Shown: positions 637-29,809, numbered from the stretch's first letter. The stretch is 64,000 nt of DNA from Halieaceae bacterium (GCA_902631395.1 CACOYM010000009.1:8502-72501); one strand, 5' to 3'. The notes: generated by a model from the sequence alone, not told the origin. Translations and numbers: made by a program.

Positions 637-2044
637 CTACTGAGTAGCCTGGTACAGAAGCCAGATGGGTAGGCCAGTAGACGCTTCTTCTGGAGTGATC
701 GGATGGGTCGCCGTAGAGACTGAGCTTGTCCCGACTGAGTTCGTAGCAGTCACCGTACAGGTGTAGGCGACATCATTGGTTAATCCAGAGACTGTGATCG
801 GGGATGAGGTGCTTGTTCCTGTGAAGGCGTTGGTGCCGTCTGTGCAAGTCGCTTCGTATCCAGATATGTCCGTGCCGCCGTTATCACTTACCGAGACAGT
901 GAGGACAATCTTGCCGTCCTCATAGTCAGTTGAGGTGATGGTTGGAACTGAAGGCAGTTCAAGAGGCACAGATACGGTGCAAGGATCGGATACAGGGGTT
1001 GTTCCGAGCTTGCTTACTGGCGCTACGGTACAGGTGTAATCCCTGCCACGGGTCGCTCCAGAGACTTCAATAGGTGAGCTTGAGCCATTCCTAGCTAGTT
1101 CTTCAGTAATGCGCATCCCCCATGAGTTCAGCACGCCCTCTATCACTATCGGGCCGACATCAATATCCTCAATGGATAACACCCAGTCTCCGTCCATAGT
1201 TTGTCTAGTGACATCGTCGAGACTGTCCACTGATGTCAGAGTCGTCGGGAACGTACCGACCAAGTCCTCCCCTCCACTGCTTCCCTGATTCCACAGAATC
1301 AGTTCTGTTCCTTCTGGGGTCGCTATGGGTAATATCAACATCTATCTCGATAGAGGACAGCACAGATGTGGGATCGTACCCAGCGACCGTTAGCGTTTCT
1401 TCAATCGGCGTGTTATCGATTAGGTCAGTAACTGGGGCACCCGCAACATCAATATCAGACCCAAGGCAGCGAGCAGAATAGCCCGCGATGGGGAATGCCG
1501 TATCAGTGGTAGTTGATAGGTTGAATCCCAACGAGATGATGTTGCGCGAGGTAGGTGCTTGAGTGATGACGGGCTGCGTCCGCTCACCAGAGACCGATGC
1601 AAGCACTTGATCTACGGAATTGCACCCAGCTCCATTAGCATCTATGTCAATAACTCCTCCCACGCTGTCATCAGGAGGGCCACTGGGCCACCCTAACACT
1701 AAGGCCACAGCTTGACAGTTGGTCAGGGCGTCGTTGTTACTGATTTCCAGATAACCCCCAACACTGGTTAGGTTCACCAGGCCATCGAGGTTAATGATGG
1801 CGTCGTTCCCGACCAAGTACACATCACCCCCAACGCTGGTGATGTTGGCTAGGCCATCGAGGTTGGTGATGGTAGAGTGCCAGATGGCCAGGTTTCCCGA
1901 TATATTATCGCAACTCGCAGCACCCAGCGCATCAACTTCTGCCTGAATCCCTAGATTGTAGTCGGACTGCTGACAATCGACCGCCCAAATACCCTCCACC
2001 CAAAGCAGGGGCAACCAAACCAACAATCGCGAGACAATCCTCAT
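637..2044 (-). pseudogene. Frameshifted secreted/surface protein: signal peptide, Receptor-L/LRR-like repeats, proprotein-convertase P-domain inserted in FN3, second FN3, C-terminal GLPIWLLYQATQ tail
   Basis: ORF 1205..2044 has a signal peptide, xNLDGLxNxTSVGG repeats and a P-domain start (IEIDVDITHSDP). ORF 637..1341 continues the P-domain (TPEGTELILWN...GDWVLSIED...GVLNSWG) and FN3 (SPITVSGLTNDVAYTCTVTATNSVG). Frame switch is near 1316-1323. Confidence 0.75.
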
Positions 2045-13451: not shown

Positions 13452-13528
13452 CGGGGCGTAGCGCAGTCTGGTAGCGCACCACACTGGGGGTGTGGTGGTC
13501 GCAGGTTCAAATCCTGCCGTCCCGACCA
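13452..13528 (+). tRNA. tRNA-Pro (GGG)
   Basis: CGGGGCGTAGCGCAGTCTGGTAGCGCACCACACTGGGGGTGTGGTGGTCGCAGGTTCAAATCCTGCCGTCCCGACCA: 77 nt, anticodon GGG. Confidence 0.97.
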
Positions 13529-14420: not shown

Positions 14421-17111
14421 ATGTCGAAAATTTCAACGCTACGTTTATTGCCGATTGCGTTGATCGCAGGAATTATCGGCGCAGTTAGCGTAGTCATTTT
14501 CTTGAACAGTATCGAAGAGAAATACCGATTAGCTGCTGAGCCTGAGCCGGTCAAAATGATAAGAGTGATTGTGCCTCGCCAGAATATGCGCGCCGGCGAT
14601 CGAATTCTGGAGGAAAACCTAGCGGCACGGCAGATCCCTGAAAAATTTGCCCCAGCGTATGTGCTTCTGGCAAAAGATGTGAAGTCAATTGTTGACAGAA
14701 CCTTGCTTACAGACGTCCAGCGCGGCAGACCTATGACTCAGTATGCTGTCACGCAGACGAAGTCTACCCGGTTTTCTGACACGATCGAGCTTGGCAAGCG
14801 AGCAAGGAGTGTGAAGGTCTCGAAGGTAGAGTCATTTGATGGATTGCTGAGACCCGGGGATACAATTGACCTCATGGGTACTTATCAGATGCAAAACTTG
14901 TTCCAGACTTTTTCCAGCAGTACGCCAGCCAAAGGCCTCGCGGAGACGGTGTCCACGCGAGCTGTAATGCCGGTTCTTCAGAATGTTTTGGTGATCGAAG
15001 TTGCGAGAGTTGACAGGAATGGTCGCCGTTATGAGAAGAACATCGACAAGGACTCTCGCGATGGTGTAGATCTGGACTTCACCCTAATCACGCTTGAGTT
15101 AACACCTCAACAGGTCGCGCGCGTGGAGCTTGCGGAAAATACAGGGGATGTATTTGCAATACTCCGCAATATGGAAGACACGAGTGTCGCCAATTTCTCT
15201 ATGCTCGGAACTGAGACCCTTCTTCTTCCTGAAACAGCTCCAAAGATAGATCTAGTTTTAGATGCTAATGGCACACCCATTGGTTCGATCGTTGGCGATA
15301 AGGTTTTGGACGACGCGGGAAATGTAATCGGAAAGGTCGTCGAAGGTCAGCCAGTTGGACTGGACGGCAAGCGCTTGGGTCGAATTGTGACTGGAGTTAG
15401 CGAGGAAGATCCAATTAATCGTGTTGCTGAAGTTGCAGATGTTATAAGAGACGCTAACGGAGACATCGTTGGCAGGGTCGTAAATGGCACGGTGATCGAC
15501 CGTGCGGGCAATATCATTGGATCAGTTGAAGACGGTGTGCCCGTCGGGACAAATGGCCAACCACTGGGGAATATAGACCGTGGTGTTAAATTGGATGCTG
15601 ACGGCAACGAGGTCGAGTTGTCAGGGAGTTCAGTTCGCCAAGATATCGTGCTTGATGCTCAAGGGAAGCCCATTGGGCGCGTGGTTGGCGATAACGTGGT
15701 AAACCAGCGTGGAGAAGTAGTTGGCAAAATCGTAGACGGCCAGGCAATAAGCCTGAGTGGCAGGCAGCTGGGACGTGTTGTTAGGGACGTTGCCGCAGAC
15801 GACCCAGTAATGAGCGTTGCTGAAATTGCTGACGTTGTAAGAGATGCCGAGGGAAACATTGTCGGGAAAATTGTTGGCGATCAGATTCTAGATCGAAGTG
15901 GAAAGGTCATTGGGGAGGTGGTTGACGGAAAGCCATTGGGCTTAGCCGGAGAATCACTTGGGTCAATAGATAAACGCGTGGCGCTGAACGCTGCGGGCAC
16001 AGAGGTTGCTCTGGATGAATCAGTATTATCTGACCGTGCTGTGCGTCGAGAAACGGTTGTCCGTGATAGCAATGGAGCAGTCGTAGGTAGGGTTATCGAC
16101 GGCAAGGTAGTAGATAGTGAAGGCAATGTGGTTGGATCTGTAGACAGTCGCGGCATCGTGCGAGATCTGAACGGAAAGACTTTAGGTCGACCAGAGGAAG
16201 TAAACGTCAACGGCTCTGGTGAAATAGTTGACGGACCGTCCACGATCGTCCGTGACTCACAGGGAAATGTAGTGGGACGTGTGCATGAGGGAAAGGTTTA
16301 CGACGCGTCCGGCAATGTTATCGGCAGAGTAAACGACCGAGGAGATGCGATAGGGGCTGATGGAACGTCGCTAGGTTCTGTTGAATCAGTACTCACCGAT
16401 GCAACCGGAAGAGTAGTGGCGACTGCGGCTGAAGTCGTCAGAGATGCTGATGGCAAGGTAGTTGGTCGCGTGTCTAATGGCAAAGTGGTCGATGCCGACG
16501 GAAAGGTAATTGGTGAGATAAACGACCGCGGTGAACCCGTGAGCTCCACCGGTGAGACCCTTGGGACCATTGAGAAAGTGATGGTAGACGATCAAGGAGA
16601 GGTAGTAGCGACTGCGACAAGCGTTGTCCGCGACGCCAACGGCAACGTCATAGGGCAGATACAGGCAGGGCGAGTTATCGATGCAAATGGGAATCTCATC
16701 GGAACAATAAATGAATCCGGGCGGGCTGTGGATTTAGCTGGAAACGTAATTGGCGATGTCGGTACAGTTATGACAGATCAGAATGGCGATGCAGTGCTAA
16801 CCGAACCTCCAGACAGCATCGCGGTAGTTCGAGATGCCGACGGCCAAATTATTGGAAAGCTTGTTGACGGCAAAGTGTATGACGAGTCTGGCCAAGAAAT
16901 CGGGGAATTGAGGGGTGGAGCAATAGTCTCAAGCACTGGGGAAATCATTGCGGCTGGAGTAACGATCGGCAACACAGACGCGGCGACAGTGGATAGAGAG
17001 CTACTGCAGGGTCCTGACACGCAGTACATCGTTCCAAGAATCGTAGATTTCATCGGTGGCGGAACAGGAAAAGATGGAATTATCTCAGTGCAAAAGGTGC
17101 CGCTCCAGTGA
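14421..17111 (+). CDS. cpaB: Flp pilus assembly protein CpaB/RcpC with a ~570-aa inserted repeat region
   Basis: N-terminal TM helix, SAF domain (RVIVPRQNMRAGDRI), RcpC motifs (GKRARSV, GLLRPGDTIDL, VLQNVLVI, ITLELTPQQ, LRN..D), then repeats, then VDFIGGG tail. Confidence 0.88.
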   Translation: MSKISTLRLLPIALIAGIIGAVSVVIFLNSIEEKYRLAAEPEPVKMIRVIVPRQNMRAGDRILEENLAARQIPEKFAPAYVLLAKDVKSIVDRTLLTDVQRGRPMTQYAVTQTKSTRFSDTIELGKRARSVKVSKVESFDGLLRPGDTIDLMGTYQMQNLFQTFSSSTPAKGLAETVSTRAVMPVLQNVLVIEVARVDRNGRRYEKNIDKDSRDGVDLDFTLITLELTPQQVARVELAENTGDVFAILRNMEDTSVANFSMLGTETLLLPETAPKIDLVLDANGTPIGSIVGDKVLDDAGNVIGKVVEGQPVGLDGKRLGRIVTGVSEEDPINRVAEVADVIRDANGDIVGRVVNGTVIDRAGNIIGSVEDGVPVGTNGQPLGNIDRGVKLDADGNEVELSGSSVRQDIVLDAQGKPIGRVVGDNVVNQRGEVVGKIVDGQAISLSGRQLGRVVRDVAADDPVMSVAEIADVVRDAEGNIVGKIVGDQILDRSGKVIGEVVDGKPLGLAGESLGSIDKRVALNAAGTEVALDESVLSDRAVRRETVVRDSNGAVVGRVIDGKVVDSEGNVVGSVDSRGIVRDLNGKTLGRPEEVNVNGSGEIVDGPSTIVRDSQGNVVGRVHEGKVYDASGNVIGRVNDRGDAIGADGTSLGSVESVLTDATGRVVATAAEVVRDADGKVVGRVSNGKVVDADGKVIGEINDRGEPVSSTGETLGTIEKVMVDDQGEVVATATSVVRDANGNVIGQIQAGRVIDANGNLIGTINESGRAVDLAGNVIGDVGTVMTDQNGDAVLTEPPDSIAVVRDADGQIIGKLVDGKVYDESGQEIGELRGGAIVSSTGEIIAAGVTIGNTDAATVDRELLQGPDTQYIVPRIVDFIGGGTGKDGIISVQKVPLQ
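15249..16964 (+). repeat. Nine tandem ~63-74-aa modules of VxDxxGxxxGxV beta-hairpin motifs inside CpaB
   Basis: Modules begin DLVLDANG, DVIRDANG, DIVLDAQG, DVVRDAEG, TVVRDSNG, TIVRDSQG, EVVRDADG, SVVRDANG, AVVRDADG. Confidence 0.9.
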
Positions 17112-18592
17112 GTAATCTAGCTTTTGTTAAAAGGACGCGGATAGCAGGTGACTTGACGCTTCTTAAAGTATTTCTAATTGTCATGGGTCTTTTGAGTGGA
17201 AGCATTAGTCATGCACTGCAGGCGCCACTTCCAAAGGTGCTAACTCTTTATGACGGTCAGTCCAGAGCGTATGGCGTATCAGGTGCAATCAGAGTTACCG
17301 TCGGTGATACATCGCTCATCAGCGCAACAATGCTAAAAACTGGAGACATCGTTTTAGTCGCCGAGGGACAGGGCGAGACCAATCTCCTAGTTTGGTATGA
17401 AGATGGGTCGGCTACTGAAACTTCGGTCATCATTGTTGAAGAGGACGGATACAGACAATCCAAAGAAGTGGCCAGTCTGCTGGAGCAAATCAATGGTATT
17501 GATGTCTCTCTTGTGGGCAGGCGAATCGTCGTTGACGGTCAAATTGATTCGCGCGACCTAGCAAGAGTGAAAGCCGTTCAGCAGCGCTACGGCGACATAC
17601 TTATTTTGGCGAGGGAAATATCAACCTTCGAACAAAAGATGTTGCACTTCGACGTAAAAATCACCGAGATAAGTCGTGACGTGACTGAGGAGTTAGGAAT
17701 CAATTGGTCCACAAGTTTCGCAGGGCCTACACTTAATTATGAGCGAGCATGGAACCAAGGGTCTAATCTTGCTATCCCGCAGACAAACGAAAACGCTTCT
17801 TACTTATTCGGAAATAATTTCACTGACGTGGGCTCTATGGATCTCGCACTTGGGGAGGTTGTATCGGGCGCCGGCGCTGGTTTAACGCTGGACCAACAGC
17901 AGAGACTAGTGGATGCGCAAGAGCGCAGTTACACGTATTGGGGAATCGGCACATCGATAATTTCAATGATAAACCTTCTTGAGTCCAACGGCGCCGCGAC
18001 CACACTCACTCAACCCAGGATAAGCGCGAGGAGCGGAGGTATGGCCGAGCTTGTAGTGGGCGGAGAGATTCCTGTTGTAACAAGTTCAATAAACGGTCCC
18101 ACTGTCACCTATAAGAATTACGGTATTCAATTAGAAATATCGCCAGAAGTCGATCAGTACGACAACATCATGGGGCAGGTTTCAGTAGAAGTCTCAGCAC
18201 TTGACTTATCTAATGCAGTAGACGGTCAACCAGCGTTTCGCAAACGATCAAGTAAAAACGACATTCGGCTTGCGCCCGGCGAAACCTTGGCGCTAGCTGG
18301 CCTGATCCAACAAGAGGAGCAGATTGCTTACTCTGGTCTCAAGTGGCTGCAAGATATCCCTCTGCTCGGCAATTTGTTCCGCAACAAATCCTTCACGTCC
18401 GGAGAGACAGAACTTGTGATACTCATCACTCCTACCGAAATTGAAGATCTTTCGGCGGGGGAAAACCAAAGGATTATTGATCGTGCACAAGATATTCGAT
18501 CGGACTTTGAGGAAATAAAGTACGAGTTATCGCAATACCCCAAGACAAGAAAGACTGAGGAACCCTCTGGACCAGAGGATACGGATCCCTGA
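17108..18592 (+). CDS. cpaC: Tad secretin CpaC/RcpA
   Basis: N-domain (RVTVGD...GETNLLVW), BON-like region, secretin motifs ELGINW, GGEIPV, YGIQLEISP, GETLALAGL, LQDIPLLGNLFR, ETELVILITP. Confidence 0.9.
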   Translation: MSNLAFVKRTRIAGDLTLLKVFLIVMGLLSGSISHALQAPLPKVLTLYDGQSRAYGVSGAIRVTVGDTSLISATMLKTGDIVLVAEGQGETNLLVWYEDGSATETSVIIVEEDGYRQSKEVASLLEQINGIDVSLVGRRIVVDGQIDSRDLARVKAVQQRYGDILILAREISTFEQKMLHFDVKITEISRDVTEELGINWSTSFAGPTLNYERAWNQGSNLAIPQTNENASYLFGNNFTDVGSMDLALGEVVSGAGAGLTLDQQQRLVDAQERSYTYWGIGTSIISMINLLESNGAATTLTQPRISARSGGMAELVVGGEIPVVTSSINGPTVTYKNYGIQLEISPEVDQYDNIMGQVSVEVSALDLSNAVDGQPAFRKRSSKNDIRLAPGETLALAGLIQQEEQIAYSGLKWLQDIPLLGNLFRNKSFTSGETELVILITPTEIEDLSAGENQRIIDRAQDIRSDFEEIKYELSQYPKTRKTEEPSGPEDTDP

Positions 18593-18629: not shown

Positions 18630-20357
18630 ATGTTCACCATCCGAATTACAAATAAGTCTGGAGACTTCGATCAGACCGCCACCTGCAGAAGTGCAAGCTG
18701 TCAGATAGGCAAGTCCAAAGAAGCGCTTGTGCGAACCAAGGGCTGGTCGGTAGCGCCTCGGCACCTCCGACTGGAGCAAAACCTTGCTGGCGTTTACGTC
18801 GAGGATACGAGTAGAGGTTTTGGCATTCGAATCAATGGCAAAACTGAGGAGCGCTATGGGCCCCTTTCGACCTCTGACGTCGTATCCTTTGGGTCCTACA
18901 CTCTCTCGATAACGGAGTCTGCTCCTTTCGGAACCGCTGACGACCGAGGGGACGTGCCGATCGTCACTGGTGAGGAAAAAGAAGCCACCAAAACACTGAG
19001 CTCCCGACTTGAAGAGTCAGCTCCGACGGTGGCAGCGATTGATCCGAAACAGAACGATATCTCTGAGTCGACACCTAACCCTGAGGATCCTCAACGATAT
19101 ATGGAGTGGGCCAAACTCTGTCACAAGGAGCTCTTGAGGCAGCTGGATTTCGGCAGGGTCGAAATGGATGGACTCTCGGATATCCAACTCAGGGAGTTGA
19201 TGGATAGCTTGATAACGCGAGCAATGGGTGCACTCGATAGCGGGATACCAGAGGATATTTCGCGCGATTTACTAAAAAAAATCGTACTGGATGAGTCCAT
19301 TGGTTTAGGAGCGATCGAGGATCTCTTGGCCGATCCTGACGTGACGGAAGTCATGGTGAATAACTATGACGATATCTATATAGAAAAAGCAGGCAAGCTC
19401 AGTAGAACTCAGGTTCGCTTCAGCAGCCCTGAGGCAGTGCTTGCGACAATTGAAAGGATAATCTCTCCCTTAGGGCGGCGAATTGATGAGAGCTCCCCCA
19501 TGGTTGACGCTAGGTTAAAGGATGGCTCTCGGGTAAATGCGATCATACCGCCTTTGGCTCTAAGGGGGCCCTGCATAACAATACGAAAGTTTGCGCAGAA
19601 GCGGCTGACAGCGGCTGACCTTGTTAATTTTGGAGCTCTAAGCGAACCCATGGTGGAGTTCTTGGAGGCGGCAGTAGTTCACCGAATGAATATTGTAGTT
19701 TCTGGCGGCACGGGATCTGGTAAAACAACATTGCTAAACGTGCTCTCTAACTTCATACCCTTGGAGGAGAGAGTAGTTACAGTTGAAGACGCAGCAGAAT
19801 TGAAGCTTGTGCAGCCACACGTCGTAACACTTGAGGCAAGGCCTGCAAATTTAGAGGGTCGCGGTGCAATAACTATTAGGGACCTAGTTCGAAACTGCCT
19901 CCGTATGCGTCCGGACCGAATAGTAGTTGGTGAGTGCAGAGGGGGGGAGGCACTCGATATGCTGCAGGCAATGAATACAGGCCATGATGGGTCGCTTACC
20001 ACTGGTCACGCAAATAGCCCCAGAGACATGCTGAGTCGCCTAGAGGTGATGGTTTTAATGGCCGGGATGGATCTCCCAAGCCAAGCAATTCGGGAGCAAA
20101 TATCGTCAGCTGTTGACATCATCATCCAACAATCTCGATTTGCAGATGGTTCCAGAAGGGTCACCAGTATCAACGAGGTGACTGGGATTGAGCGAAGCAC
20201 CGTGCAGATGTCGGAAATTTTTCGCTTCTCACAAGAAGGCTACGATGCAAATGGCAGGGTAATGGGTAAGTACGTCGCGACTGGAGTGGTACCGCAGTTG
20301 TGGGAGGAGTTCGCCGAACGTGGTATTAACATGAATCGAGACATTTTCAAGCCGTGA
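18630..20357 (+). CDS. cpaF: Tad ATPase CpaF/TadA with N-terminal FHA-like domain
   Basis: GRRIDESSPMVDARL, Walker A GGTGSGKTT, EDAAEL, LRMRPDRIVVGECRG, AMNTGHDGSLTTGHANS. Confidence 0.93.
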   Translation: MFTIRITNKSGDFDQTATCRSASCQIGKSKEALVRTKGWSVAPRHLRLEQNLAGVYVEDTSRGFGIRINGKTEERYGPLSTSDVVSFGSYTLSITESAPFGTADDRGDVPIVTGEEKEATKTLSSRLEESAPTVAAIDPKQNDISESTPNPEDPQRYMEWAKLCHKELLRQLDFGRVEMDGLSDIQLRELMDSLITRAMGALDSGIPEDISRDLLKKIVLDESIGLGAIEDLLADPDVTEVMVNNYDDIYIEKAGKLSRTQVRFSSPEAVLATIERIISPLGRRIDESSPMVDARLKDGSRVNAIIPPLALRGPCITIRKFAQKRLTAADLVNFGALSEPMVEFLEAAVVHRMNIVVSGGTGSGKTTLLNVLSNFIPLEERVVTVEDAAELKLVQPHVVTLEARPANLEGRGAITIRDLVRNCLRMRPDRIVVGECRGGEALDMLQAMNTGHDGSLTTGHANSPRDMLSRLEVMVLMAGMDLPSQAIREQISSAVDIIIQQSRFADGSRRVTSINEVTGIERSTVQMSEIFRFSQEGYDANGRVMGKYVATGVVPQLWEEFAERGINMNRDIFKP

Positions 20358-21226
20358 GTCTGCAAGCGACAGTCGTCTTCACCCAGATCTTGACCGTGGT
20401 GAGTTTCGCCATCGTATTCGCTTGCGGTGCTGTACTTCTATCTGGAACTGTGAAGACTGCTGGCCAGCTTTTTTACAGACGGCGAGTAGTGGAAACGGAG
20501 ATGAACAGAAAGGATATGTTCGTCACAGCTAACCCAGTTCTACTTTTCTGGGCAAATATGTTTGCCTTTTGTGTATTCACAGCCCTAGCGCAAATCGCAG
20601 TAGGCTCGTGGATATTGACTGGATTGGTAGCAACCGGAGCATTGACGGCTCCAGCTTGGTACTGGAACAGGCTCCGCAAGCAACGTTTCAGAAAAATTGA
20701 AGAGCAGCTCCCCGACGCCTTTATGATGATCGCCAGCAGCCTGCAAGCTGGGGCAAGTATCAACATGGCCTTTCAAAGTGCCTCCACGCAGGCTCCACCT
20801 CCGCTCTCACAGGAGTTACAACTGGTAGTACGAAAAGTGCAATTAGGGGTTAATCTTGATGTGGCGTTGCTCGAAATGGAGAAGCGGGCGCCCATAGATA
20901 GCCTCATCATGGCTAGCTCTGCTGTTCGAATTAGTAGAGAGGTCGGCGGTAATCTTGTCGAGACAATCAAGAGTATGGCTGACACCCTGAGACGGAAATT
21001 TTCCATGGAGGGAAAGATTGTTAGCCTCACTGCTCAGGGTAAGGCACAAGGCAGGTTTATGGCGTTTTTGCCTCTTCTAGTGGGCGGAGGGCTAGCGTTG
21101 CTGGACCCTGACTCAATGTCAAAGCTCATTACTACACCGGTCGGCTATGCCGTTTCCATCGTGATGGTTGTCATGCAAGTGCTTGGCTACGTTTTTATCA
21201 ATAAAACGATCAGTATTGATACTTAA
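20354..21226 (+). CDS. tadB: Tad inner-membrane platform protein TadB (T2SSF family)
   Basis: EQLPDAFMMIASSLQAG, PLSQEL, EVGGNL, SLTAQGK; TM helices. Confidence 0.9.
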   Translation: MSLQATVVFTQILTVVSFAIVFACGAVLLSGTVKTAGQLFYRRRVVETEMNRKDMFVTANPVLLFWANMFAFCVFTALAQIAVGSWILTGLVATGALTAPAWYWNRLRKQRFRKIEEQLPDAFMMIASSLQAGASINMAFQSASTQAPPPLSQELQLVVRKVQLGVNLDVALLEMEKRAPIDSLIMASSAVRISREVGGNLVETIKSMADTLRRKFSMEGKIVSLTAQGKAQGRFMAFLPLLVGGGLALLDPDSMSKLITTPVGYAVSIVMVVMQVLGYVFINKTISIDT

Positions 21227-21240
21227 TCGAGAGCCATATT

Positions 21241-22125
21241 TTGACTCCATTCATCGCTTCAATCTTCTCAGCCGTCATGATCGGCGCCTGCGCTAGCATC
21301 ATCATAGTTATCCTCATGAGAGTGTTAACGATGGTGTCGGATAGGGGTAGGGATAATCTGGACCCGCCTCCTGCTATTTTTTCACCCTTCATGCCACTCA
21401 TAAAGTTTGTAGCGTTTTACGGTACGTCAAATATGAGCGACGAGAGGCTGGACAAGGTAGATGAGGCATTGGCATTACATGGCGTGAGTTTCATGGTAAC
21501 TGCAGAGGAGTTTATCGCCGGCCAGATTGTCCTGTCGTTAGTAGGTGCATTAACTATCCTGGTCCTCGGGCTATCCTCGGGTGGTATCAATCTAGCTCTA
21601 CTTATCTTGTTCTCTGCAGTAGCTTGGTTTTTACCTAGCCTCTGGATAAAAGATTTTAAGCGTCGCAGAGACACCGAAGTCATGCGGACGTTGCCTATCT
21701 ATTTAGAGTATCTAACCATGTGTGTCGACGCCGGACTAGACTTGCCCGGCGCTATGAAACAAGCAGTGGACAAAGGCCCGCGCGGCGCGATGCGGAACGA
21801 GTTCAGAGTGATATTGAGAGATATTTCCTCTGGTTATACCCGGGCAGATGCGTTGGCCCGATTTGACGAGCGGATGGCGCTGCCAGAGGTCACCTCATTG
21901 GTTTCTGCGGTAACTCAGGCTAACAAGATGGGGTCGAGCTTATTTGACACCCTACAGTCTCAGGCCGAGCAACGTCTGGACGAACGATTTCGTCGCGCCG
22001 AAAAGATGGCAATGGAGGCTCCAGTTAAACTTATAGTGCCCCTCGTCGTTTTTATTTTTCCATTAACTTTTATCATCCTTCTGTTTCCCATCGTAACTCG
22101 TTTTTACGACGGCGGATCGCTCTGA
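21241..22125 (+). CDS. tadC: Tad inner-membrane platform protein TadC
   Basis: LPIYLEYLTMCVDAGL, AEKMAMEAPVKLIVPLVVFIFP. Confidence 0.9.
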   Translation: MTPFIASIFSAVMIGACASIIIVILMRVLTMVSDRGRDNLDPPPAIFSPFMPLIKFVAFYGTSNMSDERLDKVDEALALHGVSFMVTAEEFIAGQIVLSLVGALTILVLGLSSGGINLALLILFSAVAWFLPSLWIKDFKRRRDTEVMRTLPIYLEYLTMCVDAGLDLPGAMKQAVDKGPRGAMRNEFRVILRDISSGYTRADALARFDERMALPEVTSLVSAVTQANKMGSSLFDTLQSQAEQRLDERFRRAEKMAMEAPVKLIVPLVVFIFPLTFIILLFPIVTRFYDGGSL

Positions 22126-22135
22126 GAGAGTCGGT

Positions 22136-22483
22136 TTGACGCCCTTAACTGGAAAGTACTTGGCGCCAGAGGGATATTGCCGAGACTTTGTTATTTGCAC
22201 GGCTGACAATTTCATTTCCCGCGCTATCGGCTTAATGGGCCGAAAGAAATTTGGCTCCAGCGACGCCTTACACATTGCCCCTTGTTCGGCAATCCATACG
22301 TTTTTTATGCGAATGAACATAGACCTAATATTCCTGGATTCAAGCAGACGGGCGATCAGCATTCACAGTTCGGTCCGCCCATGGACGTTCCGGCATTGCT
22401 GGGGCGCCGCGTCAGTTCTGGAGATGCCAGACGGTAGGGCGAAGGAGCTTGGTATCTCTCTGGGGGGCTCGTTTACATGGTGA
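22136..22483 (+). CDS. DUF192-family protein
   Basis: ADNFISRAIGLMGR, PCSAIHTFFMRMNIDLIFLD, SVLEMPDG. Confidence 0.82.
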   Translation: MTPLTGKYLAPEGYCRDFVICTADNFISRAIGLMGRKKFGSSDALHIAPCSAIHTFFMRMNIDLIFLDSSRRAISIHSSVRPWTFRHCWGAASVLEMPDGRAKELGISLGGSFTW

Positions 22484-22956
22484 AGGTGATCTTTATTATT
22501 CTCGGGATGCTGGCAGGATGCGCTGAGACCTCTTACCGGTCCAGCAATCCATCGATTCCTGATGCAGCCCATTTATTGCGCGAGGCCGGCAAGGCTTACG
22601 CCAGAGGAGACTGTAAAAACGCTATCGAGCTGTTCTCGTCGCTTTTGGAAATCGCCCCCCAAGATGTCGATACAATGTTGAAGATCGCCAGATGCAGTTA
22701 TTTACTTGGTAACCCCGATAGCGCTCTCGCACAGTACAGGGCTGTTCTGAGAATAGATCCTAAGTCTCGAGCAGCGCACTACAATATCTTGTTTATTCAG
22801 ATCGAATCTCTGGTCGAGACATCTGGCGCTATCATCGAAAATGTACCTCCGAGAATGGATGATGAGGAAGCGCTTCTGGCTGTCGCAAAAGGCATCATCG
22901 GATCAGTAAAGGTGAACTTAATTCAACCGCCCAAGGACGGGAGTAGTGGCCCCTAA
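22477..22956 (+). CDS. TPR lipoprotein, TadD/pilotin-like
   Basis: Lipobox LAGC followed by TPR-like helices; located in the Tad operon. Confidence 0.7.
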   Translation: MVKVIFIILGMLAGCAETSYRSSNPSIPDAAHLLREAGKAYARGDCKNAIELFSSLLEIAPQDVDTMLKIARCSYLLGNPDSALAQYRAVLRIDPKSRAAHYNILFIQIESLVETSGAIIENVPPRMDDEEALLAVAKGIIGSVKVNLIQPPKDGSSGP

Positions 22957-23809
22957 GTTAGGCAGAAGGAAGCACCATGTCAGGTCAGCTCAGCTGGCGC
23001 AAGCTATGGTCGAGTTTTTAGTCGTTGCTCCCGTTTTTATACTCATCATCTTTGGTGCAATCCAGACAGCACTGATTTTCTCTGCAAAAACTTCCCTGAA
23101 CTATGCGGTTTTCCAAGCCGCCCGGGTAGGAGCAGTGAACAACGCCACGTACTCCGGTATCCGGAGCGGGTTGATCAGAGGACTCGCACCCTTGTACACC
23201 TACTCTAATACAAGGCGAGGTCCTGACGTTGCCGAGGATATTGATGACGGGATAGCTGAGGCTGCCCTTGAGGTGGATGCGTATACCAGAATCATCAGGC
23301 TGAACCCTATGTCTGCAGATTTTCGGACAGGTAACACTGGGCATGGTATCAGCGTAGATGGGATGAATCAGATACCGAATGACCTTCTTATGTACCGAGA
23401 CCCCGATCCTAGGGGACGCGTAAACATTCAGGATGCCAATTTACTCAAGATCAGAGTTCAATATTGTTATGCCCTGATAGTACCAATCGTTAACAAAGTC
23501 ATCGGCTCTTTGAGTGAACTGAATGATCTTAGGCAGCCTGCTAACGCCTATGAAACACCAAATGATCCAAGATTTGCAGATCAGAATAGGGGTTTCGCCA
23601 ATGAGGCTGCGGCAGCAAACGCGTCTCTAGCAACCTATACGGGGTTGTGTTCCGGGCGCAATCTAGGTGAAGATAGAGCCAACGAGTCGACTGGTTTTCT
23701 CATTGCTGCAGAAGCGACTGTTCGAATGCAGAGTCCTGCGTTTGAGTCAGATTCAGAGGAAGATACTGGCGGCTACATGTGCGATGGAGTCAGAATGGCG
23801 TGCCCTTGA
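22946..23809 (+). CDS. tadE: TadE-family minor pilin
   Basis: QAMVEFLVVAPVFILIIFGAIQ...LNYAVFQAARVGA; NIQDANLLKI. Confidence 0.82.
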   Translation: MAPKLGRRKHHVRSAQLAQAMVEFLVVAPVFILIIFGAIQTALIFSAKTSLNYAVFQAARVGAVNNATYSGIRSGLIRGLAPLYTYSNTRRGPDVAEDIDDGIAEAALEVDAYTRIIRLNPMSADFRTGNTGHGISVDGMNQIPNDLLMYRDPDPRGRVNIQDANLLKIRVQYCYALIVPIVNKVIGSLSELNDLRQPANAYETPNDPRFADQNRGFANEAAAANASLATYTGLCSGRNLGEDRANESTGFLIAAEATVRMQSPAFESDSEEDTGGYMCDGVRMACP

Positions 23810-24288: not shown

Positions 24289-25254
24289 TTAATCGGGCCC
24301 AGTAACGCTCCTTAAGGATGGACAAAAGCCCTCCGCAGAACCGATAAATTGGGGGGGCTCAGCGCTTAAAGCATCAAGTATTGCATCCAGGTCGGACTTA
24401 CTTGGGTCAGAGTCCCATCTCGCGGGCATCACTAAACACAGATCTAGAGTCTGGCCAGCGTAGTCTCCGTATTCCCCTGGCTCATTCGGCACTGCGAGCT
24501 GAACCAAAATAACCTCGCCAGCGGCATTAGGTGTACCAAGATAACTTGGATAGTAATAACCGGCATAGAGCACTGCAAAAGGGTCGGGTGTTCCATCTGA
24601 AGATAACATTTTAAAGTAACCTTCAGTCTGACAACCCCGGAACTCGTCATCACCGATCGGTTTCAACTCCACGGTATCATATAGCCGACCATCGACTTGG
24701 CTCTGATATGCAAAAGCTGTGACTTCACCATCACAGATCACCACTCTCGGTTTTAAAATATTTCCCTCCTCATCAAGAACTTGGATGCCCATGGTGGCGC
24801 CTATAGGCGGCCCCTCTACCGGATAAAAAACTCCATCTGCGTATGTGCCGACAATCTCCCCGTTATCGTTAATTAGATTGCCATCCGCGTCCATTTGGAA
24901 GGAATCTCCGTCCTCAGTGGTTACTACGGTCTGATTTGTAAGGCCCACTTGAGACTCAATATCTGCACTACCCCCGCCTTCATCATTACTGTCGTCGTCC
25001 CCCGTGGCAGAACTAGTTGAGAGAGAGGCTGGGAACGAGGGCAAAAACTTGTGCACCGCAGTGATCGAGTTGCTGAAACCTTGGTATTGGTTGTGGAACG
25101 AGGCTGAGACAGCACTGATGCAATCGTCATATCCGGGACACTCGACATTTGTGCGCCACCACTCGCTATCCACCAGCATAAATGAGAAAACTAAAGCGGA
25201 TACGACTACCACATATTCAGGCATCGCCTGGCCAGCTTCATTTCGCCGATTCAA
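24289..25254 (-). CDS. Pilin-like protein (type III signal) with Cys-rich C-terminal domain
   Basis: MNRRNEAG-QAMPEYVVVVSALV leader; six Cys; start overlaps the upstream stop. Confidence 0.7.
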   Translation of the reverse strand: MNRRNEAGQAMPEYVVVVSALVFSFMLVDSEWWRTNVECPGYDDCISAVSASFHNQYQGFSNSITAVHKFLPSFPASLSTSSATGDDDSNDEGGGSADIESQVGLTNQTVVTTEDGDSFQMDADGNLINDNGEIVGTYADGVFYPVEGPPIGATMGIQVLDEEGNILKPRVVICDGEVTAFAYQSQVDGRLYDTVELKPIGDDEFRGCQTEGYFKMLSSDGTPDPFAVLYAGYYYPSYLGTPNAAGEVILVQLAVPNEPGEYGDYAGQTLDLCLVMPARWDSDPSKSDLDAILDALSAEPPQFIGSAEGFCPSLRSVTGPD

Positions 25255-25931
25255 TTGGGTATCTCGGTATTGATCAATACTTGCGTGATATCCGGGGCTG
25301 GAATTACCAAAACGTTCACGAGAGCTGGGCCGTCTCTGAAGATCATGACATGGGCCTCTTGCTCATTAAATTGGTGCTCAAGCTCCCAGCCTTGTCGACG
25401 CAGACCACCAATGTAAAACCTAGCTACCTCATCTGGACTCATACTAGTGGCTATCAATGTAACCCTTCCGGACTTAAGTTCGTCATCCATTAAGGTATCT
25501 GAGGCTACAATTGCATCATCCGGTAAAAGCAACCCCTCGCCGAGAGAATCGCCGGCAGCATTCGCAGAAAATTCGGACATCACCAGCCTTCCTGCGGCAC
25601 CAGTATCGGTGACTTGATACTGGACAGTGGCGAAACATGTATCCGTGATCATTTTTGAAAGTTGTTTCCATGGCGCCACCGCACTGGGGACTGGTGCCTC
25701 CCACTTCCGCCAGTAAAATCGCTCTAAGGCCTCTACGGAGTCGGGGGTTCTGAACTCTTTGACGGCGAGGGTTTGCCGGTTATGAGTAGCATTATTCAGA
25801 ACGGGAGCCAGAGACATGGATTTCATCACAGGAAATTCATCCCAATCGCAAGAGGCATTGCATGGCAGACTCAGTGCGGCCAACAAAGCACCGGCTAAGA
25901 TTTTAGTTAGCCTATTAGTCCTCGAACTCAC
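25251..25931 (-). CDS. Hypothetical periplasmic protein of the Tad operon (two-lobe internal duplication)
   Basis: Signal-like ILAGALLAALSLPCNA; repeated S(V/P)(E/D)xxxRFY...W motif; likely GTG start 25931 (track start 26012). Confidence 0.6.
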   Translation of the reverse strand: MSSRTNRLTKILAGALLAALSLPCNASCDWDEFPVMKSMSLAPVLNNATHNRQTLAVKEFRTPDSVEALERFYWRKWEAPVPSAVAPWKQLSKMITDTCFATVQYQVTDTGAAGRLVMSEFSANAAGDSLGEGLLLPDDAIVASDTLMDDELKSGRVTLIATSMSPDEVARFYIGGLRRQGWELEHQFNEQEAHVMIFRDGPALVNVLVIPAPDITQVLINTEIPN

Positions 25932-26904
25932 AAATACCGCGCTTGCACTCGATGGGGGCAACACCATTTGTGTCAGGATCAACGGGAATTGGCGCGATGG
26001 AAGGCTCCCCAAACTCTAATTTGTTAATCGCACTTATCGCTGGCCCTCCCTCAAGGTAAGAGACGAGGTCGATGACTGCGTCAAAGAATTTATTATCAAA
26101 AACATCAGATGGGACGTAATCATCCACTCGGTCCTTGTAATGATTAACACTTTGCGCGCTCCATCCATCGGACAAGATCCCGCCCCTGGCTGTCATTGAG
26201 CCATTCCAACTTTGGAAAATGGCGCTCTCGATTCCCGGCGTCCATTCTCCATCCTCCCGATCCCAAACTGTCTCACCAGATCCCCAGGCATTTTTGAGAT
26301 TCAATCGGGTCACAACCTCTGGAGTGAAATAACCCTTTGGGCTGGAAAAAAATGGGAAACCAAATAAATCTTCATTCTCGTTGCCTACCGCCCGCAACAA
26401 AAAGTCAATCGGGCTTTTAATTGTATCTATGGCGCTGGCAAAGAATTCGGTCACGCCGTAAGCTAAACCAGGCGTTTGCAGTTCACGGAAATTATTGACG
26501 CTCACATCTCTGAGCATTGGTTCCTCGCTCTGAACGTAGCTCCATTGACTTGAAGGCGACTTCGTACCCAAATCCCCTGAGGTGATTAAGTCGATGGGGC
26601 CGTTAGAGTATGTTTGAAAAAAACGATTTTGCATGGACGCGGTGACAGAGGAGGCACTCCGTAGCGCCACGTGCTCCCAGTCATTACCCGATCGCGAGAA
26701 GTCATCACGATTCTCCCCAGATAGGTTGTCAAACCAAACGGTCCGTTCCCACGTGACATATCTAGCAGCTAATTGGTTCTCATGCTGGATATCCGCCAGC
26801 TTGCCAAGGGTCGGCACAAGCACGAATAAGGGGAGGAATACGAAAGCGACAGACACTACGAACTCTGCCATCGCCTGCCCTCGCTGACGGCGCTCGCTCA
26901 CCAC
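25915..26904 (-). CDS. TadE/TadF-like minor pilin
   Basis: RRQRG-QAMAEFVVSVAFVFLPLF...AARYVTWERTVW; start approximate. Confidence 0.75.
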   Translation of the reverse strand: MVSERRQRGQAMAEFVVSVAFVFLPLFVLVPTLGKLADIQHENQLAARYVTWERTVWFDNLSGENRDDFSRSGNDWEHVALRSASSVTASMQNRFFQTYSNGPIDLITSGDLGTKSPSSQWSYVQSEEPMLRDVSVNNFRELQTPGLAYGVTEFFASAIDTIKSPIDFLLRAVGNENEDLFGFPFFSSPKGYFTPEVVTRLNLKNAWGSGETVWDREDGEWTPGIESAIFQSWNGSMTARGGILSDGWSAQSVNHYKDRVDDYVPSDVFDNKFFDAVIDLVSYLEGGPAISAINKLEFGEPSIAPIPVDPDTNGVAPIECKRGICEFED

Positions 26905-26920
26905 AGAAAGGGCACCGTAA

Positions 26921-29059
26921 TCACCCCGCACATTTCGATTTCCCAACCATCCCAACGAAGTCTGTGAGCCCGTCAGTCATCTTGTCAATGACGTTCTCTG
27001 AGGCCTCATAGGCCCTGTTTCCCACCATTCTGATAGGCGGCTCAGCTACGCTGTCCCAAGGGCTGTCTATTTGCGAAACCACGTAGTCAACCTGCTCCTC
27101 GATCAACCTCTCGGCCATTCTATCTAAAGTCCAGTTAATTACGCCAATTGCATCGTCTGGTGCGCCCGGCAAAAAGGTACTCCACTCAATCTCACCCGTT
27201 GCAACTGCTGTAGGCAGGAGCGAATTGGGTTTCAGGCGTGCATCCCAAAAAGGACTGAACAGACTTGCCGGTTCGTTACCGTCTTGCATGGGATTCGAAA
27301 AATAGGCTTCCGCCGAGCTGATGGTCGACATTGGCCTTCTAGAAGTGAAAACCACTTGCTGATACAGGCCCTCCAAGCTTGCCTCCTCCGATCTCGAGCA
27401 TGTATCGAGATCGAAGCGGTCGTAAGTTACCTCATCTTCGCGACCCTCAAGCCAAGTTTCCGCAGGCGTGGCGTCTCCATTGCCCATATCAAAAGTATCA
27501 CTATCGGACGTCTCTACATCACCCAAATCAATAGCAAGGGCAACTATGTATTCGCGGCTTTGTCGCGATTGTCTATGAGAGTCATCCAGCGAGGCAAAGA
27601 TTGGTACACCAGTATAGGATGTGGTTACGTTTGTGGGGCCGCCATAAATCGGTGGTGGCACAGATTGTCCCCACAACAAATTCTGAGTATGAAACGGTTC
27701 GAGGGGCCCCTCGTTGACGGGGTCATCAGGGTCTCCACCATAGGGCCCATCGATCTGACCCAGTTTCCCCCAATCGGTAAGGATCTTGAGAGCATGCCTT
27801 TGCTCTGCGACGAGTTGATGTGTCGCGCCTCCCAAGGGAAAACCTATGGGCAGCTCGAAATTAAGGTCAATTAAAGTCCACCCCTCGCACCCAACAATAG
27901 GTAGGCAGACCTCTATTCTGACGAACAACCCCACTTCGATTTCTACGCCGATGCTAAGTACATCGATAGCGGCCCATCCAAGTTTCGAGATATCCTCAGC
28001 CTTTTTTAGCCCGCCGTGTGCCTGAAAAGCGGCACCTCCATCATTCCTTACACCAAACCAGAGACCAAAATCGAGGTCGATGATTAGTTTTACGATCCCA
28101 GCATCCAGTGTCAGTCTCGGGATAAGGTCAGGGATGGTATCCGCCGCTGGCCATTGCCAATGCCTGTCCTCGGTGAAAGGATCTCTGTTCTCGTTTACAA
28201 GCGCCGCATAGTATTTATAGGCATCAAGCGTAGCGTCCTTGACGTCATCATCATCTTTTTTCGAGACGTTAGGGGAATTGAGGCCAATCATCGCAGTCGT
28301 AGGGAAAAAGTCCTGCAGTTGCTCCGAAGCATCCCTAATCGCGTCTTCTGAATCAGGGTTGCTTTCCGCTAGATCCTCCATAACCCCCTCCATGTCAGAC
28401 TGACCAAAATCTATCGGGGAATAGGTCTCAAGGATGTTCTTCGTTAAAAAAAGGAAGCTCAAAAACGAGGGATAAATATCAGCATTGTCGTCCTCCAGCT
28501 GGTTTGCCTGAATGACGTCTTGGTGAGTCTCAAATTGCGCCACCATTGTCGAAAGCGCGAACGCGGATTGGAATACACCCAGTGCGCTGTTGAAATGAGA
28601 AACCACAGTCGGCCAGAAGTTGCCGATTCTAGAGGCGGCAGCATCGACCCCGTAACCGACAGCCTGATAGGGAATCGTTATCGTATTCAAGACCATTGAA
28701 TAGGTCACTGGCGACGGCGGTGCAATCGGAGTTTGATATAGAGGGTATGAGGTGAATTTTCGAATATCTCGGTAGTGCTTGGCCCACGAGATTAATGCTG
28801 CAATCTGCCCCACTGACACCTCATTGGCAACCATTGCCCGGTTCGTATACGCGACAAAATTGTGGTTACGGGCAGCCAGTTTCGCAATGGAGTAGGCCGT
28901 GGCGTCAGCCGCATTCTCTAATTGAACTCTGTGGCGGACGAGTTGTGACTGATTGTATAAAGCTATGATGGCCACCAAGCTGATGGCCAAGAACATAAGG
29001 CCAAGCACTATTGCTTGACCTCTTTGTCTCCGATATACGCGGGTACCACACACGCGCAT
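26921..29059 (-). CDS. tadG: TadG-like large minor pilin/adhesin
   Basis: RRQRG-QAIVLGLMFL...QLENAADATAYS...ARNHNFVAYTNRAMVANEV; C-terminal SLFSPFWDARL; ATG at 29059. Confidence 0.78.
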   Translation of the reverse strand: MRVCGTRVYRRQRGQAIVLGLMFLAISLVAIIALYNQSQLVRHRVQLENAADATAYSIAKLAARNHNFVAYTNRAMVANEVSVGQIAALISWAKHYRDIRKFTSYPLYQTPIAPPSPVTYSMVLNTITIPYQAVGYGVDAAASRIGNFWPTVVSHFNSALGVFQSAFALSTMVAQFETHQDVIQANQLEDDNADIYPSFLSFLFLTKNILETYSPIDFGQSDMEGVMEDLAESNPDSEDAIRDASEQLQDFFPTTAMIGLNSPNVSKKDDDDVKDATLDAYKYYAALVNENRDPFTEDRHWQWPAADTIPDLIPRLTLDAGIVKLIIDLDFGLWFGVRNDGGAAFQAHGGLKKAEDISKLGWAAIDVLSIGVEIEVGLFVRIEVCLPIVGCEGWTLIDLNFELPIGFPLGGATHQLVAEQRHALKILTDWGKLGQIDGPYGGDPDDPVNEGPLEPFHTQNLLWGQSVPPPIYGGPTNVTTSYTGVPIFASLDDSHRQSRQSREYIVALAIDLGDVETSDSDTFDMGNGDATPAETWLEGREDEVTYDRFDLDTCSRSEEASLEGLYQQVVFTSRRPMSTISSAEAYFSNPMQDGNEPASLFSPFWDARLKPNSLLPTAVATGEIEWSTFLPGAPDDAIGVINWTLDRMAERLIEEQVDYVVSQIDSPWDSVAEPPIRMVGNRAYEASENVIDKMTDGLTDFVGMVGKSKCAG

Positions 29060-29078
29060 GCTGGTAGCTGTGGTTGGC

Positions 29079-29339
29079 TTACCCTTCGTCCTGAGCGAAG
29101 TCCGTGAGGTCGTATTCTTCGGCGCCCTCAGACTGGGCATCATCAGCAGCCGTTCTTCCGAGCTGTTGACTGGTTCCGCCCCCTAACTCGGCTGCAAGGT
29201 CACCAACTTGCCCCCGGACAGTATCGCCAAAAAAGTTATAGACACTTATTGCTGCCACCGCCACCAAAGCGACAATGATGATGTACTCGGTCATACCCTG
29301 ACCGCGCTGACCAAATCGAGATTTTCGTGCCAGATTCAT
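29079..29339 (-). CDS. flp: Flp-type major pilin
   Basis: MNLARKSRFGQRG-QGMTEYIIIVALVAVAAISVYNFFG; AAGGGGAG upstream of ATG 29339; first gene of the minus-strand operon. Confidence 0.8.
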   Translation of the reverse strand: MNLARKSRFGQRGQGMTEYIIIVALVAVAAISVYNFFGDTVRGQVGDLAAELGGGTSQQLGRTAADDAQSEGAEEYDLTDFAQDEG

Positions 29340-29809
29340 ATCTACGCTGCTCCCCTTAATTTCAACTTTGTGCAGTTGTTTGGACTGAACGTCCAACAAA
29401 TTCCATAGCTATCATACCCGACTAAAGGAGCATTGCTACGGGTTGATTAGGGAGAATTGGCTCTGTGGTCCGCTTTTCTCGAGTCTGGCAGGAGTCTCAA
29501 CACCACTAGCGACCTCGAACACGATCTTAAGTCGCCGAGGTTGAAAGCTATCAATGGCCATCAATGTAGGTATTGCGAGTGAATGGGCTTGCAGGGCGGA
29601 GGCCATGGCTATTGCATAATGACAGCGCACTAGGCGTTTTTCTGAGACGAAAATTGCATCCGGCGCAGCTTGTAGGCCCGATTGTAGACGGGTATTTTAC
29701 TCAAGGGTTTGCGGCTAGAACCGATATATTATTTTATGACGAGATAGACGCAGATGTACTGCATTACAATACTTTAGGTTTTGCGTATCTTGTCGGAGGA
29801 GCTGAGCGA

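Follow-up and report, generated by a model that had tools for sequence, protein, structure and literature searches.

What might a CpaB/RcpC protein, the subunit of the Tad alignment ring, do with several hundred additional residues of periplasmic repeats? We address this question for the cpaB/rcpC gene of a Halieaceae bacterium, which lies in a 64,000-nucleotide stretch of its genome (GCA_902631395.1, CACOYM010000009.1:8502-72501; hereafter the window) and encodes a protein of 896 aa, compared with 303 aa for Pseudomonas aeruginosa RcpC. A reading of the DNA by itself, the original prediction, had proposed that a repeat array is inserted into an intact CpaB ahead of its conserved tail, and our analysis agrees: nine modules stand between an ordinary CpaB core and a C-terminal hairpin, in a protein that is a member of a widespread family and not a one-off. 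The Tad alignment ring was identified only in 2024-25 and has been treated as a compact 300-aa part, and the CpaB family described here shows that it can bear an additional 60 kDa of structure in the periplasm. In databases these proteins already go under the name CpaB, with their Pfam matches listed, though we found no description of a repeat-expanded CpaB, or of its module in DotG/VirB10, in the literature searched, mostly outside subscription journals, and no repeat-expanded CpaB is mentioned in the accessible parts of accounts of the Tad systems of Myxococcus and Bdellovibrio.

Architecture of the enlarged CpaB

The gene and the parts of its product are as follows:

14421..17111, +: cpaB/rcpC gene, 896 aa, ATG start; opens the main tad operon
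14436..14507, +: predicted inner-membrane anchor helix, ~aa 6-29 (hydropathy; helix 6-39 in the AlphaFold2 model)
14562..14738, +: SAF (D1) domain, aa 48-106 (PF08666, E 1.2e-4; FlgA/SAF structural matches, Z 9-11)
14772..15167, +: RcpC (D2) domain, aa 118-249 (PF16976, E 4.6e-16; 9gzr_A, Z 12.0)
15204..15230, +: predicted short helix, ~aa 262-270, equivalent of the ring-closing helix L3 of P. aeruginosa RcpC
15246..15638, +: modules 1-2 (aa 276-406); best-conserved pair, contains a D-P linker
15639..16049, +: modules 3-4 (aa 407-543); a second copy of the 1-2 pair
16050..16817, +: modules 5-8, aa 544-799, a regular 63-aa series with predicted connector hairpins between modules
16818..16973, +: module 9, aa 800-851 (motif cutting and module profile)
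17040..17111, +: C-terminal predicted beta-hairpin, aa 874-896, conserved; VDFIGGG at 875-881

Both the whole protein and its parts identify it as CpaB. It scores 110 bits against the CpaB equivalog TIGR03177 (cut-off 71) and 59.2 bits against PF16976 (curated cut-off 28.8), and these matches, with PF08666 and the hydropathy profile, uphold the predicted order of transmembrane helix, SAF domain and RcpC domain. The full-length AlphaFold2 model (predicted local distance difference test, pLDDT, 78; predicted template modelling score, pTM, 0.48) runs from the helix at 6-39 through two core domains, a helix at 264-268 equivalent to L3, nine all-beta modules and a poorly ordered linker to the final hairpin. 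Its core matches the RcpC fold by Foldseek (E 2.9e-10), and residues 47-269 align with 56-268 of 9gzr_A (Z 12.0, 178 aligned residues, rmsd 13.7); because this alignment, taken by its range only, stops at model residue 269, equivalent to chain residue 268, we place the start of the array directly past L3. A hydrophobic motif precedes module 1 in all 11 homologues compared. The tail was correctly recognized as resembling that of ordinary CpaB: in related loci, short CpaBs terminate in similar motifs such as VEIIIGG and IEIIRGG, the tail pattern is present in 119/121 proteins, and the hairpin is kept in 37/37 aligned tails with I, G, G and G invariant, though the model places its strands (874-878 and 890-894) at low confidence (pLDDT 55-63).

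P. aeruginosa RcpC (PDB 9gzr) and Caulobacter CpaB have the same order of transmembrane helix, SAF/D1, RcpC/D2, L3 and C-terminal beta-hairpin and likewise adjoin the secretin in the tad operon; what sets the Halieaceae protein apart is the ~575 aa of modules between L3 and the hairpin. According to the accessible part of the P. aeruginosa study, L3 is required for the RcpC dodecamer, and the C-terminal hairpin is required for function and was modelled on the secretin N-domain (PMC12307814); the portions available of two Caulobacter studies model the C-terminal strands of CpaB on an Ig-like partner (PMC12637624; bioRxiv 2025.11.05.686773). By analogy, the array would sit between two elements with known roles, L3 and a tail that would serve as the secretin-binding element, in a protein that would form a ring of 12-13 subunits and bind the secretin N-domain.

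Cutting the array (aa 276-851) at its hairpin motif yields nine modules of ~63 aa that start at about residues 276, 339, 407, 470, 544, 607, 670, 733 and 800. Scored against a profile derived from modules of the family, every one reaches 50-75 bits, compared with 6.9 for the best of 200 shuffles. The motif G-x-x-[ILV]-G-x-[VIL] occurs 25 times in the protein (shuffled mean 1.2, maximum 4), and the predicted count of nine stands. The finer divisions anticipated from the sequence were also recovered: modules 1 and 3 are 51% identical and modules 2 and 4 are 53% identical, with a D-P...VAE.AD linker in both pairs, and modules 5-8 keep a strict 63-aa period, visible as 189-nt spacings in the DNA. 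Across all copies pairwise identity is 31-54% in protein and 60-83% in DNA. The three or four hairpins expected per module need one correction, as DSSP on the predicted models gives three core hairpins of 16-17 aa, comprising six core strands, and assigns the supposed fourth to a connector between modules; such a connector also appears in a two-module model (pLDDT 87, pTM 0.60).

The forecast likeness to DUF3659 and beta-flower families is confirmed by scores above all three Pfam cut-offs. The beta-flower families PF21784 and PF21785 score 153 bits (cut-off 38) and 112.8 bits (cut-off 25), Bflower_2 matching in 9 stretches at 153 bits, and DUF3659 (PF12396) scores 95.6 bits (cut-off 24.8) in 8 stretches that cover positions 1-58 of its 61-position model, a length the module matches. 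The column profile also places [DNEQ]xxG at the module hairpin tips. The best stretch in the array spans 62/112 positions of the beta-flower profile, and the accessible part of the beta-flower description gives those folds fourfold to sixfold symmetry, four to six hairpins and an aromatic lining (PMC10584680), whereas the CpaB module has three hairpins in ~60 aa, scarcely any aromatic residues and no helix enclosed within it, and occurs as a tandem array in a machine subunit. Since the modules are smaller than four- to sixfold beta-flowers, and the array has no aromatic network lining a barrel around an enclosed helix, we describe the predicted fold as beta-flower-like and do not call it a beta-flower; a barrel could be common to two modules. 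Structural comparison of the module fold gave a best Z of 4.0 (a sialidase segment) and no match at Z >=5, Foldseek gave none at E 0.001 in PDB or BFVD, and PDB sequence searches returned nothing usable. Structural matches to Rhs, Tc and teneurin proteins were rejected as generic hairpins (TM-scores <0.1).

A widespread family with inserts of variable length

The best 120 of 155 homologues, 500-924 aa long, all combine RcpC with the repeat families (120/120), and one of them, from another assembly, has 897 aa and 93% identity. Module counts range from 3 to 13 among 121 proteins, approximate values in which partial modules are counted. The array was present in 41/71 GTDB loci, within a conserved Tad operon, from Cellvibrionaceae, Halieaceae, Methylophagaceae, Pseudomonadaceae, Motiliproteus, Litorivivens and others; these hosts are mostly marine gammaproteobacteria, and the array-bearing family has cultured environmental members in Gilvimarinus, Methylophaga and environmental pseudomonads, with 8-11 modules counted in Gilvimarinus. 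In a quick tree of 68 rows, which omits the loci L023 and L070 and the 5'-cut L040 and L041, all 39 module-bearing cores form one clade (SH-aLRT 99); once distant members are added, all insert-bearing CpaBs group with a support of 81 and the module-bearing ones with 55. With its conserved operon, this clade bears out a distinct Tad subtype, which had been foreseen as structurally new.

These data also rule out an assembly fusion of two genes. The 120/120 listed homologues and the conserved operons argue against it, as do repeat copies that are only 60-83% alike as DNA. Contigs of 4 runs, drawn from four studies, cover the gene piecewise and reveal neither joints nor indels; the core/array junction and the array/tail/secretin junction are each crossed by single contigs, and none covers the whole gene. 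In the source genome (89% complete) the protein is the only RcpC protein and the only Bflower_2 carrier found. No long CpaB was found in 24 genomes of the same genus, one of which has a CpaB of 272 aa, or in 16 of the same order, an absence from which we infer patchy acquisition. A search with the core for short, module-free relatives gave 9 matches, apparently fragments or shorter module-bearing forms.

The length of the insert varies independently of the secretin. It ranges from 119 to 496 aa across 15 loci in which the periplasmic part of the secretin stays at 118-119 aa, a spread that does not bear out the fixed axial spacer offered by the original prediction, and across 34/39 loci, which are related and hence not independent, the two lengths show a Spearman correlation of 0.06 (the 34 include L042 and L045; the five missed by the search pattern include the source locus). 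Middle modules keep no fixed position between relatives.

The insertion site accepts more than one type of repeat, because the CpaBs of L042 (5645-7291) and L045 (2673-4319), both 548 aa, hold there a different insert of ~250 aa, rich in hairpins and containing cysteine, with no clear Pfam match; site and tail are identical to those of module-bearing CpaBs.

Two further observations concern these loci. Secretins of Methylophagaceae-like and Pseudomonadaceae loci (L004-L039) have a periplasmic part ~60 aa longer, 177-185 aa compared with 118-119 aa, which is possibly an extra domain. The locus L033 comes from a metagenome-assembled genome labelled Paracoccaceae, and its CpaB is sister to that of Litorivivens, a placement that, from the sequences, appears to reflect misbinning or recent transfer.

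Possible roles of the array and the VirB10/DotG parallel

The module also occurs in scaffolds of other machines. A module-pair profile gave 551 matches at E 0.001 in 1.84 billion proteins, and we scanned 95 of the best 150, a set without the two top matches (known CpaBs), short fragments, the bulk of the longest proteins and many of the lowest-scoring matches. At least 53 of the 95 carry TrbI, RcpC is found in 11, DUF3659 predominates in 11 and the others are mostly repeat-only, so that VirB10/DotG proteins are the commonest host of the module other than CpaB among the scanned matches. The modules end ahead of the TrbI domain in 53/53 carriers, 31 of which have an N-terminal hydrophobic segment, and module matches of >=30 bits number 120 in the forward sequences and 0 in reversed controls. 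When 20 TrbI carriers were classed, the nearest family was DotG/IcmE for 8 and VirB10/ComB10 for 12, every score falling short of the curated cut-offs. One 68-member Atlas cluster (TrbI in 100%, Bflower_2 in 99%) adjoins clusters with a decapeptide repeat, and 81 DotG-like loci, reduced to 60 complete ones once 21 cut loci were dropped, had modules only in 23, decapeptides only in 27, neither in 10 and both in 0, proportions biased by a query built from a module-bearing alignment. The module-only and decapeptide-only groups are probably clades. DotG has DotI, DotF and DotN homologues as neighbours in the two loci checked, and the module, as judged by sequence, appears to stand in for the Legionella-type decapeptide repeat in Dot/Icm loci.

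Some of these matches are of separate interest. Nine giant VirB10-like proteins (P0131, P0133, P0136, P0139, P0144 and P0150-P0153) have 1900-2400 aa and 13-29 module matches, and one giant VirB10-like cluster has 141 members. A plasmid match in Teredinibacter DotG (E 5e-6) was rejected as a carrier, with 0 modules at 15 bits; on the Teredinibacter purpureus plasmid L078 (9817-16212), a DotG-like protein of 2131 aa has a middle without module or decapeptide and with weak FlgF-like matches.

DotG/IcmE and VirB10/TrbI resemble the enlarged CpaB in being membrane-anchored periplasmic proteins with variable repeats that precede the region in contact with the outer-membrane complex, and a subset holds CpaB's own module; their core domains are unrelated to those of CpaB, and the Legionella DotG that has been studied carries the decapeptide repeat and not the module. 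What can be consulted of the DotG studies indicates that the middle region of Legionella DotG differs in repeat number (PMC6761968), that Dutka et al. proposed the variable repeat as a collar and not a channel because its length varies (bioRxiv 2023.03.22.533729; PMC13244404), and that the repeat is unresolved in Dot/Icm structures, in which the collar is gone without DotG (bioRxiv 2025.06.23.660953).

With these parallels in mind, we lean towards reading the CpaB array as a collar or tether in the periplasm, flexible and tolerant of changes in length, and not as a fixed-length spacer, at about even chances. The core would build its ring on the inner membrane as usual, through D2 and L3 as in P. 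aeruginosa RcpC, and the C-terminal hairpin would still grip the secretin, while modules inserted past the ring-closing helix would loop out and be free to vary in length; following the DotG analogy, from which the collar geometry is taken, the array would give slack and bracing between inner- and outer-membrane parts. A dodecamer as in P. aeruginosa would display ~108 modules, an estimated ~0.7 MDa, and the full-length and two-module models, with pTM values that are low beside their pLDDT, suggest beads on a string. That the module number runs from ~2 to 13 while the secretin shows no change to make up for it speaks against a ruler. The outer ring of ligand-binding modules suggested from the sequence fares well in part: an outer ring fits, likelier as a structural collar, and classical glycan or calcium binding is disfavoured because there are almost no aromatic residues (2 in 587 residues of the source protein, 0.3% across 119 inserts) and no calcium-type motif. 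The loop Dx[DN]xDG is the motif of calcium-binding repeats, and its relaxed form Dx[DN]x[DN]G has 0 matches in the 119 inserts.

Several points weigh against the collar or tether. The DotG collar is itself a proposal, the accessible part of an earlier account having assigned the repeat to the channel wall (bioRxiv 312009), and the analogy is topological, as the DotG repeat lies between the anchor and the outer-membrane domain and the CpaB array past the ring core. The tail that would hold the secretin is modelled at low confidence, and the many module-bearing members, being one clade, amount to about one evolutionary event. In addition, modules 1-2 are better conserved than the others, with D297, D330 and R343 invariant, and a degenerate module occurs in 28/36 long pilins encoded nearby (reversed sequences, 0/36), and both may point to a specific contact for which a passive collar would have no use.

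Such a contact lies at the centre of another explanation, which we consider improbable: that the array is a platform docking the module-bearing minor pilin or binding peptidoglycan or cations. The degenerate pilin module speaks for such a platform, as do the conserved V-R-D module start (R 78%, D 91%), the net charge of -39 on the source array and, in one profile match (P0199), a repeat fused to an OmpA domain. L032 and L033, however, pair a CpaB of 2-3 modules with a module-free pilin of 62-63 aa, which shows that the two proteins are not strictly coupled, the DotG-type loci examined contain no second module-bearing open reading frame (ORF), most invariant module positions are turn glycines, and the scarcity of aromatics and the lack of the Dx[DN]x[DN]G motif count here too. 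It is likewise unlikely that the modules act as an axial spacer or as the wall of a chamber, raising the secretin off the ring to span a wider periplasm or to house a larger pilus-tip complex. The array does stand in series between ring and tail, modules 5-8 are linked in the model by continuous strands and could be semi-rigid, and the tip proteins of module-bearing loci are larger, with TadG of 666-745 aa compared with ~400-590 aa in short-CpaB loci and neighbouring pilins of 309-405 aa compared, where found, with 50-56 aa (114 aa in L042/L045), although common ancestry confounds this link. Close relatives nevertheless differ in module number with an unchanged secretin (Methylophagaceae-like loci, 3-6 modules, insert 195-379 aa), and nine modules in line would add an estimated ~20-25 nm to an RcpA:RcpC assembly that, in the part of the study available, was modelled at 21 nm in a periplasm of ~24 nm (PMC12307814). 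A tolerated expansion of a permissive linker, with little function, would account for freely varying copy number, for middle modules that shift position between relatives and for the 257-341-aa CpaBs of related operons; we think it very unlikely, given that no module-free member was found inside the clade (modules in 39/39), that copies old enough to have diverged to 31-54% identity keep the fold pattern, and that a marine bacterium whose assembly is small (2.3 Mb, 89% complete) has retained a 60-kDa addition.

Beyond the collar or tether in CpaB itself, we tentatively propose, while holding it somewhat doubtful, that the module is a portable periplasmic-collar block recruited independently into CpaB, into VirB10 (type IVA) and into DotG (type IVB), where it would replace the decapeptide repeat. 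If true, this would provide the first confidently folded model for the role of variable repeat regions in trans-envelope scaffolds and would give DUF3659/beta-flower-like repeats their first cellular role. A natural copy-number series in two unrelated machines, together with a confidently predicted module, makes the question of collar or spacer directly testable.

Surroundings of the gene

The neighbouring features of the window are:

13452..13528, +: tRNA-Pro(GGG), just upstream of the tad region
17108..18592, +: secretin CpaC/RcpA (T2SS-T3SS_pil_N domain)
18630..20357, +: TadA/CpaF ATPase with an N-terminal FHA domain
20354..22125, +: TadB and TadC platform proteins (T2SSF matches)
22136..23809, +: DUF192 protein, TPR protein (presumably TadD-like) and TadE-like pilin
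24289..25254, -: 321-aa minor-pilin-like protein with one degenerate module copy
25251..29399, -: 253-aa conserved protein, TadE/F-like pilin, 740-aa TadG and Flp pilin

The operon thus reads cpaB, secretin, FHA-fused tadA, tadB, tadC, DUF192, TPR and tadE, with a convergent flp-tadG block, and differs from the RcpC and CpaB operons in its FHA-fused TadA, its DUF192 protein and its module-bearing pilin, in which the degenerate module scores 16.7 bits (reversed controls <=2.6). Relatives, where contigs allow, have the order flp-tadG-tadF-unknown-pilin-cpaB-secretin-tadA-tadB-tadC-DUF192-TPR-tadE, and the secretin follows cpaB in 39/41 module-bearing loci, the remaining 2 ending at a contig edge. 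The flp-tadG-tadF-unknown-pilin block (24289-29399, -) is inverted and downstream here, and upstream of cpaB in relatives that reach that far. Within it, the 253-aa ORF (25251-26012, -) has no Pfam or NCBIfam match, and its family recurs in 38/42 module-bearing loci and in some short-CpaB loci; it appears to be a conserved Tad component that has yet to be named. The subtype, with its FHA-fused TadA and DUF192 gene (18630-22483, +), showed no TadZ or prepilin peptidase family among the conserved neighbours of module-bearing loci, and a TadZ search of the source genome gave no match, as was also the case for its controls. The genome has one A24 peptidase, on a separate contig, which may be shared with the Tad system.

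The tRNA-Pro(GGG) is a possible integration site; GC content is ~50% in the tad region and 52-56% around it, and within the 64-kb window the 3' end of the tRNA-Pro does not recur as an attR-like repeat. At 637-2044 (-), two overlapping ORFs resemble pieces of one protein, possibly frameshifted, with a C-terminal tail PIWLLYQA, which we take to be a secreted protein with repeats.

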